A DNA stretch of 23,851 bases from assembly GCA_965649115.1 (NCBI GenBank), contig CBFGJN010000025.1, positions 1 to 23,851 on the forward strand, read 5' to 3'. Shown here one piece after another: positions 1 to 23,241 of the stretch (position 1 is its first letter; the number at the start of each line of letters is the position of its first letter). The DNA is from a candidate division WOR-3 bacterium. Lineage in GTDB: Bacteria > Hydrothermota > Hydrothermia > LBFQ01 > DSFT01. The notes under the pieces were generated by a model. It worked only from the letters and a program-made list of their open reading frames with translations, searched no databases and had not been told where the DNA came from. A program made the translations under genes and the position numbers.

Positions 1-98
1 TAGCCGAAAAATGGGTATTTATAAGGCGAAGCCTTATTCATAGGGTGGGTGGGGAAAATATAGAAATAATCATATTTTTAGAATTACTAGACAAAGCA
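1..98 (+). mobile_element. Right half of the ~200-bp TIR/hairpin MITE-like repeat (copy A), inserted in cas5
   Basis: Colinear with 11718-11815. Contains hairpin ATAAGGC-GAA-GCCTTAT and GGGTGGGTGGGG, and ends in the right TIR TTACTAGACAAAGCA. Confidence 0.9.
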
Positions 99-649
99 AT
101 TTCAGTTTCTTTTAAATCTATAAAATTTAGTTTTTCAATAAAAATCCAATCTTCTGCTCTTCCAAGATGTAGTGGATAAATTCTGTTTTGAGGGTTTTCA
201 ATTGAATTTTTAATGTTTTCTAAAAAACTCCTATCTTCATGATAAAGATAAATCCACAGTTTGACATCGTTTAGGATATCAATTGAGACAGGTATTTGTC
301 CTCCAATATGCTCAATATGACCTGAAACACTTCTGTTTTCAGGATAGCCAAATCTTGAATTATGTGATTCTTTATTTAAATTTCTAAACCAAATGAATTC
401 CGTAGTTTTACTTTCAAATGTTCCACATATAGAAATTTTTATTTTTTTAAGCTTGTGATAATCGCAATTACAATTTTGATTTTCGCAAGGTTCTCCATCA
501 TTTTTATAATTTCTTATTCCAAGAACATTACATAAAAGTCCAATTACAGTTGAATATGGTGGGATTGGATAAGTGTGTCTTCTTTGATATGTAAATGGAA
601 TTCTATAATGGGCTTGTGGTTGATAGATTTTGAGTTTTAAAACTTTCAT
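38..649 (-). CDS. cas5: Type I-B CRISPR-associated Cas5, C-terminus replaced by repeat-derived sequence (probably disrupted)
   Basis: N-terminal AHYRIP..TYPIPPYSTVIGLL motif and LHLGRAED glycine loop. SD GGAGG upstream. The last ~19 codons (ALSSNSK...PPTL) are read from the repeat. Confidence 0.9.
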   Translation of the reverse strand: MKVLKLKIYQPQAHYRIPFTYQRRHTYPIPPYSTVIGLLCNVLGIRNYKNDGEPCENQNCNCDYHKLKKIKISICGTFESKTTEFIWFRNLNKESHNSRFGYPENRSVSGHIEHIGGQIPVSIDILNDVKLWIYLYHEDRSFLENIKNSIENPQNRIYPLHLGRAEDWIFIEKLNFIDLKETEIALSSNSKNMIISIFSPPTL

Positions 650-4169: not shown

Positions 4170-4175
4170 ATTTAA
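3955..4175. repeat. Diverged direct repeat (~220 bp) flanking the R-M cassette, copy at lower coordinates
   Basis: Shares blocks such as AATTTTCCATCAAGAACCATATTTAA and ATTTTCATTTATGAAATCTTT with 5929-6149. Confidence 0.9.
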
Positions 4176-5071
4176 CCCTCAATTTTTAATAGTAGATCTT
4201 GCTCTCCACTCATGATTTTATCTCCCTTCTTCGGTTCGAAGTTTAGTACTAATGCTTCTATTATTGGATGCCTATTTATTTCTCTACCACCGACATAGTA
4301 GAAATGATTTCTTGTAATTATATTAAATTCTCTCCAAAACCTTTTGAGATATAGATTTTCTCTGTATTTATTTTTGTACCAAGTGGAGAGAATAAATTTA
4401 CCATCAAATCGGGAAAGCAATTTATATAGGTCATATTCGTCATTTTCTGTCCAAATATCAAAATAGTTAGTATGTCTCCCTATGTAAGGTGGGTCGCAGT
4501 AAAGAACATCGTATTGTTTCGCTTCCGTTATGGTTTTTCTGAAATCCTGTGTGATAAATATCCAATAATATCTGTTTATACATTCTTCTAAATATCTAAC
4601 TTGATTGACTATTTTTGTTATGTATGCTTTCTTGAATCTATCTGGTTTCTTTCCAAATGGTGTATTAAATTCTCCTTTGCTATTGAACCTTATTATACCA
4701 TTGAAACAAGATCTATTAAGAAAAAGAAAATCTAATGGGTCTTGGTACTTATTAAATCTATCTCTGACTTCATAATAATACTCTTCTCCTTTTTTGAGTA
4801 AATTTTGCCCCTCAACCTTCAAAAACATTTCCACTTTTTTAGAATTAATTTCTTTTCTTTTAATGGCATTGTAGAAATTAATTATATGCGGGTTTTTGTC
4901 TGCAAAAATTGCTCGTTTAGGTCGGAGGTTAAATCCAACTACTCCTGAACCCATAAACGGCTCTATCCAATTTCCTTTTATTTCAAAATTTATTTGCTCT
5001 ATAATCCACTCCACCAACTTTGTTTTTATTCCTTGAATTTTTATCGGTGGAACAAATATCCTTTTTTTCAT
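4172..5071 (-). CDS. Dam/D12-class N6-adenine DNA methyltransferase, M.EcoRV-like
   Basis: VPPIKIQGIKTKLV, EPFMGSGVV (motif I), LFLNRSCFNG and YCDPPY (motif IV) closely resemble M.EcoRV. ATG overlaps the endonuclease stop (TGATG). Confidence 0.93.
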   Translation of the reverse strand: MKKRIFVPPIKIQGIKTKLVEWIIEQINFEIKGNWIEPFMGSGVVGFNLRPKRAIFADKNPHIINFYNAIKRKEINSKKVEMFLKVEGQNLLKKGEEYYYEVRDRFNKYQDPLDFLFLNRSCFNGIIRFNSKGEFNTPFGKKPDRFKKAYITKIVNQVRYLEECINRYYWIFITQDFRKTITEAKQYDVLYCDPPYIGRHTNYFDIWTENDEYDLYKLLSRFDGKFILSTWYKNKYRENLYLKRFWREFNIITRNHFYYVGGREINRHPIIEALVLNFEPKKGDKIMSGEQDLLLKIEG

Positions 5072-5925
5072 CAAACCTTCTTCCTTTTTATTTTATTAAT
5101 ATCTACACCTTTAAATCTCAAAAATTCCTCTAAAGAAGCTATTTTCTTCGTTTTACCTTTATTATCTTTTATTTTAATTTTGCCATAGTTCATCCAATAC
5201 TCATCAAACCATTTTTCACCGTTTTCTCCAAAATATTGCCAAAATATACCTTTACCTTCCAACAATTCTTTAATTCTTTTTACACTGCCTATATTTGCAG
5301 TATTTCCACTTCCTCTTGTATCGCTAGCAATTCTCCACTTTTCCTGAGCAAAGAATATAAAATTTTTAATTACCGATGGTATGTTCTCTAACTCTTTAAG
5401 TTTATACTTTTTATAAGTTTCCGTATTGTAGTTCCTTTCGTATAAGACTCCCAACACATAATGTCCCAGATATTCGTTATAAGGAAACTGTATGTTCTTT
5501 TTACTTTGTCTGTCTATGAAGTATGTCCCGTGAGAACCAAGAGTAAAACCATTACATTCATAAGGCTTTCCGTTTTTGTATTCTGTAATGTAGGTTGTTT
5601 TCAGATCCACAGCGAATTTTATTTGCTCATCTTTTTTAGAGACGAATGTTATGTCAGGATACCAATTTTGCTTATCTACAAGAATCATTTTGTATCCATG
5701 CTTATCAGCAAATTCCAAAAACTTATGTAATAGATGAATTTCTATAACCTTTGAAATAAGCTTTGTATCGTTAGTAATAGTATAAATGTTTTGAAAAACG
5801 TCAATAAAGCCTTTTATAACCCATTGATTATCTTGTGTAGAAACATATTTATTTAAATTCTTAGCAAACAATTGAAGTTGTTCTAAAAATTTCTTTTTTA
5901 ACTTCTCTTTATTCTTAATGTTCAT
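5071..5925 (-). CDS. Type II restriction endonuclease, EcoRV-like (predicted GATATC)
   Basis: DTK.IS...E, YPD...AVDLKTTY (PD-D/ExK), FTLG, KNI.FPY and GSGNTANIGS, which matches the EcoRV recognition loop GSGNTTNIGS. Confidence 0.92.
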   Translation of the reverse strand: MNIKNKEKLKKKFLEQLQLFAKNLNKYVSTQDNQWVIKGFIDVFQNIYTITNDTKLISKVIEIHLLHKFLEFADKHGYKMILVDKQNWYPDITFVSKKDEQIKFAVDLKTTYITEYKNGKPYECNGFTLGSHGTYFIDRQSKKNIQFPYNEYLGHYVLGVLYERNYNTETYKKYKLKELENIPSVIKNFIFFAQEKWRIASDTRGSGNTANIGSVKRIKELLEGKGIFWQYFGENGEKWFDEYWMNYGKIKIKDNKGKTKKIASLEEFLRFKGVDINKIKRKKV

Positions 5926-9538: not shown

Positions 9539-9717
9539 GCCGGGCAAGAAATTCTAAATTACGAAATCATTAAGTTAAATTGTTGATGCCTTAATTTTAA
9601 GAGAATTATTGATTTAAAGGAGGATTTTTAAGGGTGCGTAGTTTTTAAGTTTTAGGCTTATATTCAGGGCAAGTAAAATAAGAAAAATAAATGATTTTAG
9701 AATTACTATACCTAGCA
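9539..9717 (+). repeat. Degenerate copy (B) of the ~200-bp repeat
   Basis: Contains TTTTAAGAGAATTATTGATTT, GGCTTATATTCAGGG and TTTTAGAATTACTA blocks. Ends are variant. Confidence 0.55.
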
Positions 9718-9728
9718 AACACTTTTTA

Positions 9729-9835
9729 CCTTGTCTAATAAATGGGGATCATAGGGAATTACAAGCCGAAGGCTTGATTTTAGGTTGGATGGGAAAAATA
9801 AGAAATAATCTTATTTTTGGACTCACTAACACACC
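9729..9835 (+). repeat. Internally deleted degenerate copy (C)
   Basis: Left end CCTTGTCTAATAAATGG, hairpin CAAGCC-GAA-GGCTTG, and TAGGTTGGATGGGAAAAATA. Confidence 0.65.
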
Positions 9836-9846
9836 AGGAAAATTGT

Positions 9847-10037
9847 GCTTTGTCCAATAAATGGTGTTAAATTATTGATTATCAACAACTTACAAAAATT
9901 TAAGAAAATTATAGTTTTTATGGGGGGTTTATTGCCCCCTTGCCGAAATATGGGAATTTTAAAGGCGTAGCCTTTATTCCAGGGTGGGTGGGGAAAATAT
10001 AATAAAATAATTACTTTCAGAATTATTGGACAAAGTA
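9847..10037 (+). mobile_element. Complete MITE-like element (copy D) with 10-bp target duplication GGAAAATTGT
   Basis: TIRs GCTTTGTCCAATAA / TTATTGGACAAAGT. Direct repeats at 9837-9846 and 10038-10047. Confidence 0.9.
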
Positions 10038-10095: not shown

Positions 10096-10506
10096 ATGGT
10101 AGGTTTGGAATTAGAAAAACTTAAAATAGAAAAAAATGGAAAAGGTTATGTTAAGAATTTTATTCCTTTAACTTATTTAGATCTTCCTGTTGAATTAGTT
10201 TCGGAGGATGGAAGTATTTATATGTTATGGATAAACGATTTAGAAGATAAGGAGCTTTGGTACATAGTCTTTATAAATCCAACTCAAATTCTAAAATACT
10301 TAAGAGGTGAAATATCCGTAAGAGATATAATTGAAAATGGTGAAACTTTCGTTGGAGAAAGAAACTACGAAAACTACTTTGAAATTAGAAACCTAATAGA
10401 ACTTGATTTTGCAATAAAAAATAAATTAGTTAATAAGCTACCAACTTATCAAGCTAAAATAAAATTGGATAAAACTCTCTATAATGAAATAGAATACTTA
10501 TTATGA
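10096..10506 (+). CDS. DUF6575-like protein (putative antitoxin/immunity)
   Basis: SD AGGAGGT. The Y.D.P...Y..W.....W......I..YL.G.IS.R pattern is recalled from DUF6575; not verified by search. Confidence 0.5.
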   Translation: MVGLELEKLKIEKNGKGYVKNFIPLTYLDLPVELVSEDGSIYMLWINDLEDKELWYIVFINPTQILKYLRGEISVRDIIENGETFVGERNYENYFEIRNLIELDFAIKNKLVNKLPTYQAKIKLDKTLYNEIEYLL

Positions 10507-10570
10507 ATGATTTGAAAGATATTAAAAAATTCAACAAAATAAATTTTACCTATTCAGAAAATAGTTCTAT

Positions 10571-11029
10571 TTGTTTAGCCGTTTAGTTGATAGTATAGAA
10601 AAACAGTCAATATATCTTATTAAGTTGGATTTTCTGGCAAAAGAGGAAGTCATTTTTATATCAATAGATAAAATTGATTTAGATTATGACCTTAAAATTG
10701 AAATTAGCTACATTAAGGAAACCAAAGATGATAATAAAAATTTTATAATTGTTTCTTTGGATTACAATTTTTTAGAACAAGTTTTTTGGAAGAAAAGAAG
10801 AAAGCAATTATTAAAAATAAATATCATCTATAAGTTAAATCTTTTCTTAAGTTTAGATGGTAAATCACAAAGTTTATTTTATGATGAGGAGGTTATACGA
10901 AGCTATGCTAACAGTAGTGGTTTATTGACTGTATTCCCTTACATAAGGCATTTATCTGACCATATTCATAAAGAATTAAGACTTGGATTAGAACCTTACC
11001 CTCCAATGAAAATAAAATTAGATGTGTGA
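10571..11029 (+). CDS. SecB-like chaperone (may really start at ATG 10503 across a 1-nt frameshift)
   Basis: C-terminal YANSSGLLTVFPYIRHLSDHI...L...PPM fits the SecB-family 'lfPY.R..i.....g..p..lP' pattern, preceded by beta-strand-like segments. Confidence 0.6.
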   Translation: MFSRLVDSIEKQSIYLIKLDFLAKEEVIFISIDKIDLDYDLKIEISYIKETKDDNKNFIIVSLDYNFLEQVFWKKRRKQLLKINIIYKLNLFLSLDGKSQSLFYDEEVIRSYANSSGLLTVFPYIRHLSDHIHKELRLGLEPYPPMKIKLDV

Positions 11030-11474
11030 TGGTAAGACTTATTATTATAAAAAACTGATAAATCAAATAAAGGATAAAAATGTAAGAGAGACGGTTCAAA
11101 AAATTGAAAGTACTTGTCCAGATAAGATACTTCAAAATTTTCAGGAATTGAAAGAAGAAAGAGAAATTTACCGTTTTATAAGAGGTAGTTTTGATAAGTA
11201 TCCACACTTCTTATATAAACCTAATGTATTTAAGAACAAAGCTTCAAATGAAATTTCTATTTGTCAAATGTGTGGTCTTTCTGTTTTTTTAGATTTAGAA
11301 GACTTGGTCAATACTATTAAAAATAAATTTCCTGATGCTTGTCCAATTATTGTTAAAGGATTATTTAATGTTAATTGTGGAAAATTATATAAAACTGATA
11401 GAACAGGAGGAAGTCATTGTACATTTTTCCCATATGAAAACTTTGACCATGATAAATTTTTTAAAAAGATTTGA
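11022..11474 (+). CDS. Putative ADP-ribosyltransferase-fold toxin
   Basis: CP...IYR...F...C..CGLSVF...G....T.....H.TF. The YR and LS strands resemble R-S class ART cores. Overlaps the upstream gene. Confidence 0.45.
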   Translation: MCDGKTYYYKKLINQIKDKNVRETVQKIESTCPDKILQNFQELKEEREIYRFIRGSFDKYPHFLYKPNVFKNKASNEISICQMCGLSVFLDLEDLVNTIKNKFPDACPIIVKGLFNVNCGKLYKTDRTGGSHCTFFPYENFDHDKFFKKI

Positions 11475-11833
11475 AACGACTTAAAAAAATTCCAATGAAA
11501 CTGTTGATTTTAAGGGGGATTTTATAGTGGGCTTAGTCCCCCTATGCCGAAAAGCGGGCATTTATAAGCCGAAGGCTTATCTTTTGCCTTGGAAAATTTT
11601 TTATATTACTAAGCTTTGTCTAGTAAATAGTGTTAAGTAATTGATTATCAACGACTTACAAAAATTTTAAGAAAATTATTGATTTTATGGGGGATTATAG
11701 GGGGGCGAAGCCCCCCATAGCCGAAAAATGGGTATTTTAAAGCCAAAGGCTTAAATTTAGGGTGGGTGGGGAAAATATAGAAATAATCATATTTTTAGAA
11801 TTACTAGACAAAGCAATATTACTAAATAAAGCA
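11475..11833 (+). repeat. Older degenerate copy (E) of the repeat, interrupted near its right TIR by copy F
   Basis: AACGACTTA...TTGATTTTAAGGGGGATT, GCCGAAAAGCGGG and ATAAGCC-GAA-GGCTTAT. The reconstructed right end TTACTAAATAAAGCA resembles TTACTAGACAAAGCA. Confidence 0.7.
11613..11815 (+). mobile_element. Complete MITE-like element (copy F) with 10-bp target duplication ATATTACTAA
   Basis: Perfect 14-bp TIRs GCTTTGTCTAGTAA / TTACTAGACAAAGC. Direct repeats at 11603-11612 and 11816-11825. Confidence 0.92.
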
Positions 11834-11905
11834 CCTTTAAAATTTTAAATAAAACTCAAATTCTTTTTTAGTTTAATTAAAGAAGTCATAAAAATTAGAT
11901 TTAAT

Positions 11906-12808: not shown

Positions 12809-12825
12809 TTTATTTTAAAGCCATA

Positions 12826-13031
12826 GCTTTGTCCGATAAATAGTTTTAAGTCCTTGATTATCAATAATTTATGAAAATTTTAAGAGAATTATTGATTTTT
12901 CGGGGGGATTTTAGGGGGGGGTATGCCCCTCTCTGCCAAAAAATGGGAATTTTAAAGGCGAAGCCTTGGATATAGGGTGGGTGGGCAAAATATAGAAATG
13001 ATTATATTTTCCAGAATTTTTGGACAAAGCA
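12826..13031 (+). mobile_element. Complete MITE-like element (copy G) with 10-bp target duplication TAAAGCCATA
   Basis: TIRs GCTTTGTCCGATAA / TTTTTGGACAAAGC. Direct repeats at 12816-12825 and 13032-13041. Confidence 0.92.
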
Positions 13032-13056
13032 TAAAGCCATAGGTTTATCCAATAAT

Positions 13057-13262
13057 GCTTTGTCCAATAAATGATGTTAATTCCTTGATAATCAATAACT
13101 TATAAAATTTAAAGAAATTATTGAATTTATGGGGGGAATTTAAGGGGGGCGAAAGCCCCCCAAAGCAAAAGATGGGGTTTTTAAAGGCAGTGCCTTAATT
13201 TTAGGGTGGGTGGGAAAAATATAGAAATAATTGTATTTTTAGAATTATTAGGTGCACCCGGC
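13057..13262 (+). repeat. Near-complete copy (H) with a variant right end
   Basis: Left TIR GCTTTGTCCAATAA, hairpins GGGGGGC-GAAA-GCCCCCC and AAGGC-AGT-GCCTT, GGGTGGGTGGG. Ends TTATTAGGTGCACCCGGC instead of the usual TIR. Confidence 0.85.
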
Positions 13263-22538: not shown

Positions 22539-22969
22539 TTCATCAAATTCAATTTATCAAATTAAATTTAATAAATTATTCATTATCAATAACTTAAAAT
22601 TTTAATAGCTTTACCTCTATCGCTTTCTCAATAAAAATTCAATTTTTTGAAGTTTTAATTTGTCATTTTAATCTTATTTAAGTTGCTCATTTTCAATAAC
22701 TTAAATTTTTTGTTAAAATTTTAGGCTATCCTAAAGGTTTCTTATTTTGAAGGTGTTTTAATTTTTAAAAATTAAAGCAAAATATATTTAAAATTTCATC
22801 TTTATAATTTGTCTATTTACAAGAGTTTTTCAATATACTTTCATAATTTGTCAGGATAATAGAAATTAGTTATAGTCTTCAATGCCGACACCTATATGAA
22901 AGTTAATAAATACTTACCAAGTTTTAATTTGAATGAATTAAAGTTTTTGTAGATAGCATCTTTAATTGA

Positions 22970-23210
22970 TAGTGTTCGGAAACCCCCTTTCAAAAGTTAA
23001 AAAATTTAATAAGTTATTGATAGTCAATAATTTAGAGTTTTGGGGTATTTTTATAAGTTATTGATAATCAAGGATTTATAAAACATAATTTGGCTAATTA
23101 TGGATATAAAAATCTTCATTTGGAGAGGTGGGGGGTAGGTGTCCGAACATGGAGGTTGAAAAATTGAAAACTTATGTTTTAAAATTTTGAAGCTGGACTA
23201 CTTTGTTCGG
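22970..23210 (+). promoter_or_regulatory. CRISPR leader (approximate left boundary)
   Basis: Non-coding DNA between cas2 and the repeat. Inverted pair TGTTCGGA (~22974) / TCCGAACA (~23142) encloses IHF-like WATCAANNNNTTR boxes. Confidence 0.65.
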
Positions 23211-23241
23211 GTTTTTTATCGTCCCTATAAGGGATTGAAAC
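23211..23241 (+). CRISPR. Single type I-B-like CRISPR repeat, no array in the window
   Basis: GTTTTTTATCGTCCCTATAAGGGATTGAAAC has the ATTGAAAC 3' handle and a TCCCT/AGGGA stem. It lies downstream of cas1-cas2 and the leader. Confidence 0.8.

Follow-up and report, generated by a model that had tools for sequence, protein, structure and literature searches.

The IS903 group of the IS5 family comprises ISs of ~1050 bp that encode one transposase, have inverted repeats of 15–27 bp and generate 9-bp target duplications. The interiors of MITEs are usually taken as inert filler. REP/BIME sequences, which go with RAYT (HUH) enzymes, are abundant intergenic GC-rich hairpins that form mosaic clusters and are not known to have terminal inverted repeats (TIRs) or target duplications. 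MITEs derived from the IS903 group include those of ISPam1, ISPko1 and ISPpa8 (part of PMC3281130). Insertion at promoters is known for TnGBS/ISLre2 and ISKra4, whose Mutator-like enzymes place the elements 15–17 bp before the -35 box (as described in excerpts of PMC3942029). Intergenic G/C triplex motifs with variable loops and local instability include BoxC/PIT/TM-ECO (part of PMC4666352) and HPGQ (part of PMC5100583). The stems of TM-ECO are 9 nt long and arranged in the order C-G-G (CCCTCNCCC...), and the repeat was not found with mobile elements according to the relevant part of PMC4666352, where the function of bacterial triplex/quadruplex repeats is treated as an open question. Finally, d(GCGAAGC)/GNA mini-hairpins are used at primase sites and in the promoters recognized by N4 vRNAP (parts of PMC13037366 and PMC3201870).

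The window, i.e., the whole 23,851-nt stretch of DNA analyzed here, contains copies A to H of a repeat that combines features of several of these systems. The features of copy F and the positions of the other copies are given in Table 1.

Table 1. Copies of the repeat in the window and features of copy F and its flanks
Feature	Position	Strand	Remarks
Copy A	1..98	+	profile match; right part only, at contig start, inserted in cas5
Copy B	9593..9717	+	profile match; decayed remnant
Copy C	9751..9835	+	profile match; short and decayed derivative
Copy D	9846..10037	+	profile match; without left arm of hairpin 1
Copy E	11472..11584	+	profile match; decayed remnant, upstream of F
Target duplication, left copy	11603..11611	+	9 bp (ATATTACTA)
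Copy F	11612..11815	+	profile match; full-length MITE, ~205 bp, model positions 0-205
Left TIR	11612..11628	+	type common to left end of IS903-group IS
Two inverted matches to IHF consensus WATCAANNNNTTR	11634-11646; 11646-11658	-; +	predicted; model positions 22-46
G-run and hairpin 1	11689..11718	+	predicted type-1 purine intrastrand triplex motif
Hairpin 1	11700..11716	.	GGGGGGC-GAA-GCCCCCC; 7-bp G/C stem, loop in both orientations family-wide
Linker ending GGG	11720..11732	+	candidate first run of quadruplex with hairpin in loop
Hairpin 2	11740..11752	+	5-bp stem, d(GNA)-type family-wide; covarying pair 11743:11749
G-tract	11760..11771	+	GGGYGGGYGGG
Right TIR	11799..11815	+	type common to right end of the IS; faces promoter-like motif
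Target duplication, right copy	11816..11824	+	9 bp
Promoter-like motif	11835..11845	+	CTTTAAAATTT; host, outside element; core at +21 from right end
Copy G	12825..13031	+	full length; 9-bp duplication 12816-12824 / 13032-13040
Copy H	13056..13251	+	profile match; right end damaged

The MITE family, its ends and its partner IS

The profile (HMM) of the repeat had 734 matches in the genome of the host, a hot-spring bacterium of Ca. Hydrothermia (1.85 Mb, GC 27.6%), where it accounted for 5.2% of the bases, and none in the reversed genome. For two proteins encoded in the window, the members of their clusters carry the name Candidatus Hydrothermia. Both ends were present in 215 matches genome-wide, and 321 of the 323 genomic occurrences of GGGNGGGNGGG fell inside the repeat. 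Being short, non-coding, present in many copies and bounded by TIRs, the repeat had all the features of a MITE that were tested. The pattern of hairpin 2 and G-tract was found in 3/272 genomes of the phylum, all of one genus, and no second MITE family with the same ends was found in 110 other genomes of the phylum. Contigs from four other sequencing runs did not bridge copy F.

The ends of the family read TGCTTTGTCY...RGACAMAGCA. A 9-bp target duplication was exact in 89 of the 203 copies with both ends and flanks, compared to 0.5% in the control. At 10 contig ends the left end of the MITE, and at 16 its right end, continued into a different sequence, that of an IS known here from its assembled ends (126 and 125 bp), the middle being missing from this assembly. 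The N-terminal piece encoded at the IS left end had a 92% match to P0001 (300 aa), and the C-terminus of P0001 consisted of the letters encoded by the IS right-end piece. P0001 carries PF01609 and PF13737 and scored 245 bits with NF033579 (cut-off, 140). Because only the IS ends were assembled, profile searches of the genome with PF13737 and PF01609 found no match, and the 56-aa N-terminal piece alone had no Pfam match. The MITE is likely, as judged from the shared ends, to be mobilized in trans by an IS903-group transposase, and the 9-bp duplications together with this DDE partner indicate a double-stranded DDE reaction. The initial annotation had suggested looking for co-occurring HUH or DDE enzymes; the latter was found, while the HUH profile PF01797 had no match in the genome, which is 94.5% complete (positive controls matched in 6/14). 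A Mutator-like partner was rejected, given that the partner is IS5-type and that PF00872 had no match in the genome and NF033572 none in five genomes; these searches gave no ISKra4 match either.

An exact-pattern metagenome scan for the IS gave 0 matches. A scan of a genome collection with the 56-aa piece gave 4 weak loci (L026–L029) in one archaeal genome (Nanohalarchaeota), each with a transposase-like N-terminus at the end of a contig. A related IS, bounded by TGCTTTGTCC, was identified by 13 end matches (L084–L096) in G013, a genome of a different family within the order; neither a MITE expansion nor, by eye, a clear promoter motif was found there.

The neighborhood of the copies in the window has features of its own. 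At window positions 1–649, the cas5 gene of a type I-B CRISPR locus is interrupted by copy A; the profile match of cas5 ends at 151 of 217, and the insertion precedes an antisense copy of the promoter-like motif within the gene. The apparent rest of cas5 adjoins another MITE copy (contig C26, near 11116) with the same 9-bp duplication, so the split across two MITE copies is either a real rearrangement or a mis-join. Genome-wide, 52 of 215 left ends without a duplication of their own have a 9-mer that recurs at a right end elsewhere (6 expected by chance); many of them lie at contig ends and others are internal. Three ORFs without Pfam/NCBIfam match occupy 10096–11474 (+) between two MITE arrays, and a diverged version of them occurs in sequencing run X5. 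Between the cas genes (670–2338 and 4172–5925, both on the - strand) are two small-gene pairs without NCBIfam match, which we take to be nucleotidyltransferase-like toxin-antitoxin pairs, as well as a Dam-type methylase with a probable nuclease. The region past cas2 (22540–23230) matches the IHF consensus at four places; near 23177 it has a promoter-like motif and near 23215–23241 a probable single CRISPR repeat, letters similar to which are found at other contig ends.

Oriented insertion before a promoter-like motif

The copies land in a fixed orientation. Of 313 array right ends, 183 had the core TTTAAAATTT of the promoter-like motif at +20/+21, a further 53 had it at +12 to +14, and 53 lacked it; on the left, it was absent from 104/124 flanks. 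The core was present likewise at 12/16 right ends of the IS. An ATG followed closely in 347 of the 620 promoter-like motifs versus 11% in the background, and about a third of these motifs (197/620) had an element end upstream. In 3/5 relatives (G002, G003, and G004), the motif was kept before the orthologous gene without an intact element there, so the motif belongs to the host. From the motif and its spacing to the ATG, we infer that it is a promoter. Many genes seem leaderless, with the ATG mostly 4–9 nt past the TTTAAAATTT core, and the motif also precedes a tRNA-like sequence.

The copies form head-to-tail stacks in which 96 of 114 intact junctions had a spacer of 9 bp, and the last copy of an array, which is nearest to the promoter-like motif, was better kept than the first in 121/146 arrays. 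Local duplication as the source of the tandem copies was rejected, as neighbors were 75.5% alike and random pairs 75.3%. No polarity of the copies with respect to the replication strand was found (concordance 0.495). We found no report of promoter homing for the IS903 group in the literature searched, and promoter homing by an IS5-type enzyme would be a more surprising trait than the interior modules described below.

Hairpins and G-rich modules of the interior

The initial annotation claimed that the interior of the repeat was a conserved, covarying structure. One of its grounds, a flip of hairpin 2 between AAGGC/GCCTT (copies A, D, G, and H) and AAGCC/GGCTT (copies C, E, and F), was confirmed in the window. 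Among 123 near-full unique copies, the corresponding model pair 133:139 was complementary in 118 (96% vs. 53% expected) with an r2 of 0.87, compared to 0.01–0.02 for sites 4–5 nt away; the pair was C-G in 348 and G-C in 140 of 539 copies. It was also the sole pair to pass a tree-aware null, which was our own R-scape-like test with 40 replicates on a base alignment from the profile HMM rather than a covariance model. Compensated variants of three further pairs occurred in 11, 18, and 14 of the 539 copies, and each probably has one or few origins, given that each variant shares its flanking context. Thus, covariation holds for one pair of hairpin 2 and not as a general rule. For hairpin 1, the annotated letters were found as stated, and since the stem is invariant, it does not covary.

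Covariation of the TIRs within a copy had been proposed from copies D and F, in which the ends do match, while family-wide matching is weak. Complementarity was 67% for pair 11:194, against an expected 50% (p 0.0013), and 48% for pair 9:196, against 40% (p 0.06); both pairs were matched in 38/101 representatives, and the 14-bp TIR was perfect in 6/101. Copies whose duplications are exact showed closer matching (r2 0.18 and 0.11). Pair 9:196 was compensated in 5 of 13 hand-picked copies, several of which had been picked as best matches to F; an alignment row of the wrong strand (L052) was left out of this set.

The loops differ between the two hairpins. A C-GNA-G triloop was found in the top strand of hairpin 2 in 315 of 393 perfect stems, but in only 66/225 copies of hairpin 1. 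The remaining hairpin-2 loops included AAA (44/393), which is also the loop of copy F in place of GNA, and AGT in copy H. The closing pair of hairpin 2 is C-G in 446/539 copies, the next pair being the one that flips, and in the loop the G and the A rarely change whereas the middle base is freer, which is consistent with the d(GNA) mini-hairpin rules (given in parts of PMC3201870 and PMC13037366). The GCGAAAGC mini-hairpin is far weaker as RNA, as stated in part of PMC13037366. Of 225 copies, 108 had the purine-N-A loop of hairpin 1 on the top strand and 112 had it on the bottom strand. Such a loop in both orientations is expected of a DNA palindrome with an inverting spacer, and in one study template switching reportedly inverts the spacers of inverted repeats. 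G.T versus A.C mismatches in the stems stood at 46:51 and 93:100, with no G.T excess in either stem, and no pairing was found for linker positions 107:119 and 108:118. Copy F folded better than its shuffles (z -5.7 as DNA and -4.9 as RNA), much of it via the TIRs.

In addition to the hairpins, at least one match to the IHF consensus (as given in part of PMC3281130) was found in 117 of 125 near-full copies, and 535 of the 905 genomic matches lay inside the element. The two inverted matches were rejected as arms of a stem, as they showed no covariation. HU/IHF-family genes, which may encode either HU or IHF proper, are present in the genome, and the predicted pair of sites could be bound by another protein. 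Following the definition of ITxF type 1 in part of PMC4666352 (three stems of 6+ nt, loops of 1–6 nt, and ≤1 mismatch from 7 nt), a type-1 purine triplex motif was present in 70/125 copies, including F, and in 0/125 shuffles; any other triplex class or strand was found in 0/125 copies. The predicted triplex would provide a reason for keeping the first G-run, which is otherwise unpaired. Retention of the linker and the G-tract, also claimed initially, was confirmed in the window. All four G3 runs (GGG + GGGYGGGYGGG) were intact in 109/125 copies, in which a first loop of 27 nt holds hairpin 2, and the one-base loops of the G-tract were T or C in 122/125 and 125/125 copies.

These modules hardly vary among copied lineages. 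Among 101 representatives, 2 of the 37 G/C sites in modules were polymorphic, both with compensation, versus 11/15 other G/C sites (p 1.5e-6, with sites taken as independent though few founders may underlie the variation). Shared variants occurred at 0/17 sites of the non-palindromic G-runs, and since these are not palindromes, template switching alone should not be able to keep them. The first G-run, hairpin 1, and GGG were near-fixed in 50 copies from other assemblies, and the conservation of the G/C modules was seen in the sister species too. Rare private changes, on the other hand, numbered 1.0–1.4 per 100 cells in the modules versus 0.6 elsewhere, and in the oldest third of the copies ~21% of stem sites, 13–17% of G-run sites and 15% of other G/C sites (118 cells) were changed. 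Decay of stems as fast as that of unpaired positions had been named beforehand as evidence against a conserved structure; the stems do decay like other G/C sites in old copies, yet spreading copies have no shared variants in them.

Copies without modules nevertheless spread. A deletion of 145–169, which removes the G-tract, was found in 10 copies (7 with exact duplications), a deletion of 75–116, which removes hairpin 1, in 8 (3 with exact duplications), and deletions that fuse both hairpins in 8. A deletion of model positions 101–126 is very frequent in this genome, G002, and metagenome loci (27/90 metagenome copies); it drops the C-run and the linker, so that the G-run of hairpin 1 adjoins hairpin 2 and four G-runs are kept. 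The assembled IS ends contain neither an IHF match nor a hairpin. The gap in shared variants, the decay of old copies and the spreading deletions together suggest a constraint on copied lineages that is not absolute and lapses after insertion. Shared variation avoids the G/C modules while single copies decay, a pattern suggesting that selection acts on copying and not on the host. The ratio of module to background loss was 1.46 (CI 1.10–1.87) in promoter-proximal copies versus 2.29 (CI 1.80–2.91) in displaced copies, a comparison confounded by age.

The copies are mosaics. Linkage (r2) fell from 0.23 at 1–2 nt to 0.05 at 6–10 nt and was near background beyond 40 nt, with the same fall in copies with exact duplications and in the 50 copies from other assemblies. 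In 27 nearest-neighbor pairs, 163/194 differences consisted of one common allele in place of another, mostly over short stretches. The mosaicism is thus likely due to short-patch conversion between copies; an assembly artifact at the read level is a less likely cause, with parts of copies D and G recovered letter for letter in another sample. Missing mismatch repair was rejected as the cause because a MutL-family match is present. Template switching homogenizes short inverted repeats in bacteria (part of PMC5941160). Homogenization of TIRs across the 9-bp head-to-tail junction was rejected, given that the complementarity of facing TIRs at 84 junctions was below chance (33% vs. 48%, p 0.006, and 24% vs. 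32%, p 0.036). This shortfall looks as if near-perfect palindromes with a 9-nt spacer were unstable or avoided.

A similar module was found in a second repeat. A pattern with preset hairpin and spacing, used in a viral scan and a partial metagenome scan (11/64 parts), gave 138 matches, of which 115 belonged to the AT-rich family, 14 to loci of 46–54% GC, 8 to high-GC sequences resembling coding chance and 1 to an unrelated sequence. The majority of the 14 loci read GAGTTTTAG-AGGCGNAGCCT-NNNN-(GGGN)3GGG-AAGAAA, in which the TTTTA before and the A-run after the module were not imposed by the search pattern. Four G-runs in the canonical G3N1 x4 form were present in 14/14, an inverted C-tract upstream in 8/14 and the TIR motif of the MITE in 0/14, and, by eye, the module often stands before -35/-10-like pairs. 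The hosts, bacteria of ~50% GC, are probably Chloroflexota, as the top Atlas cluster of a flanking bL25, a weak indication, is mostly Chloroflexota. We found no paper linking the MITE module with the second repeat in the literature searched. The hairpin-2/G-tract module may be shared by either capture or convergence.

Explanations for the interior and comparison with known systems

The best reading, to which we assign about an even chance, is that the interior consists of optional DNA-level modules that raise the propagation of copies without being required, in a MITE moved by an IS903-group IS. The transposase of the IS would act in trans on the MITE, whose ends, ~200 bp apart, would need a sharp bend; binding of IHF/HU together with the extruded hairpins or triplex would supply the bend. 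Extrusion would occur in negatively supercoiled DNA behind the promoter, and a copy whose modules are intact would be propagated more frequently. Both the matching arms of hairpin 2 and the loop of hairpin 1 in its two orientations would arise by template switching at DNA palindromes and by short-patch conversion among copies, a few old events having spread widely, and a repeat in another group of bacteria would be either the source from which the hairpin-2/G-tract module was captured or the form on which it converged. The indifference of the hairpin-1 loop to strand, the lack of a G.T excess, the weaker GCGAAAGC hairpin as RNA and the report that purine triplexes do not form in RNA (part of PMC4666352) argue for DNA rather than RNA. 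Against optional modules that raise propagation stand their dispensability and the IS ends that lack them, and the slower module loss near promoters fits selection at the host level too.

It is possible, though we consider it doubtful, that the modules are neutral cargo, i.e., that a founder caught G-rich modules by chance and that few founders, template-switch repair, and gene conversion account for their conservation. Old copies that lose stem bases at least as fast as other G/C bases, the spread of deletion derivatives, module-free IS ends, sister copies that differ at already common alleles and minor compensated variants with one flanking context each, and so few origins, are all in line with such cargo. 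However, shared variants shun the non-palindromic G-runs as strictly as the stems in a genome of such low GC content, the same avoidance is found in sister species and other assemblies, and an unrelated repeat has this module as well.

A function at the host level is unlikely. The promoter-nearest copy would then act on transcription as an IHF-bent upstream element, a G4/triplex roadblock, or an insulator and be kept by the host, as suggested by the fixed orientation and distance at 197/620 promoter-like sites, the lower decay ratio of promoter-proximal copies and the position of the second-repeat module before -35/-10-like pairs. Yet this ratio is confounded with age and remains above 1, so that module G/C is still lost faster than background; the element also landed before the antisense motif inside cas5; and sister species keep the same promoter without the element. 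A role as terminator was rejected, with 3 terminator-like sites in the region versus 1.6 expected and none in copy F, and E. coli triplex repeats are reported without promoter or terminator activity in part of PMC4666352.

The initial proposal, in which the element would function in a folded, single-stranded form (a structured ncRNA, a REP-like site of an HUH enzyme, or an intermediate of single-stranded transposition), is very improbable, and its whole-element RNA and HUH versions are largely refuted: the better-than-shuffled folding of copy F, the top-strand GNA preference of hairpin 2 and the weak within-copy TIR matching, stronger with exact duplications, are outweighed by a single significant pair, no G-U tolerance, a strand-indifferent hairpin-1 loop, no match in Rfam or to PF01797, and 9-bp duplications with a partner that point to a double-stranded DDE reaction.

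More broadly, a GNA mini-hairpin with (GGGY)n downstream, in many cases next to a triplex motif, might be a portable cross-phylum non-B-DNA cassette that promotes copying or conversion of repeats in supercoiled DNA behind promoters and that was captured by the Hydrothermia MITE, a proposal that we rate as improbable. If it is true, a role of G4/triplex structures in bacterial transposition could be tested in a system whose enzyme is known and whose natural variants number in the hundreds. In this element, triplex/quadruplex motifs go together with a transposase and a target that are both defined and with deletion variants that arose naturally, which makes the question of their function testable.

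Among known systems, the partner IS resembles the IS903 group in its duplication, inverted repeats and transposase. In contrast to the MITEs known from this group, there are here ~700 non-coding copies with a fixed oriented landing before a promoter-like motif, and their interior is not contained in the assembled IS ends. The targeting of a putative promoter is shared with TnGBS/ISLre2 and ISKra4, whereas the enzyme here is IS5-type and the right end lies ~22 bp before a -10-like hexamer. The predicted triplex motif is like those of BoxC/PIT/TM-ECO and HPGQ, but, unlike in TM-ECO, its order is G-G-C with 6–7 triplets and it lies inside a MITE. Hairpin 2 has a stem of 5 bp closed by a C-G pair and a G-N-A loop, as in the GNA mini-hairpins, although no polymerase or primase partner is known here and hairpin 1 has no strand preference. 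Like REP/BIME sequences, the copies are abundant intergenic GC-rich hairpins in mosaic clusters, and unlike them, they have TIRs, 9-bp duplications, and a DDE partner; an HUH enzyme was not found.
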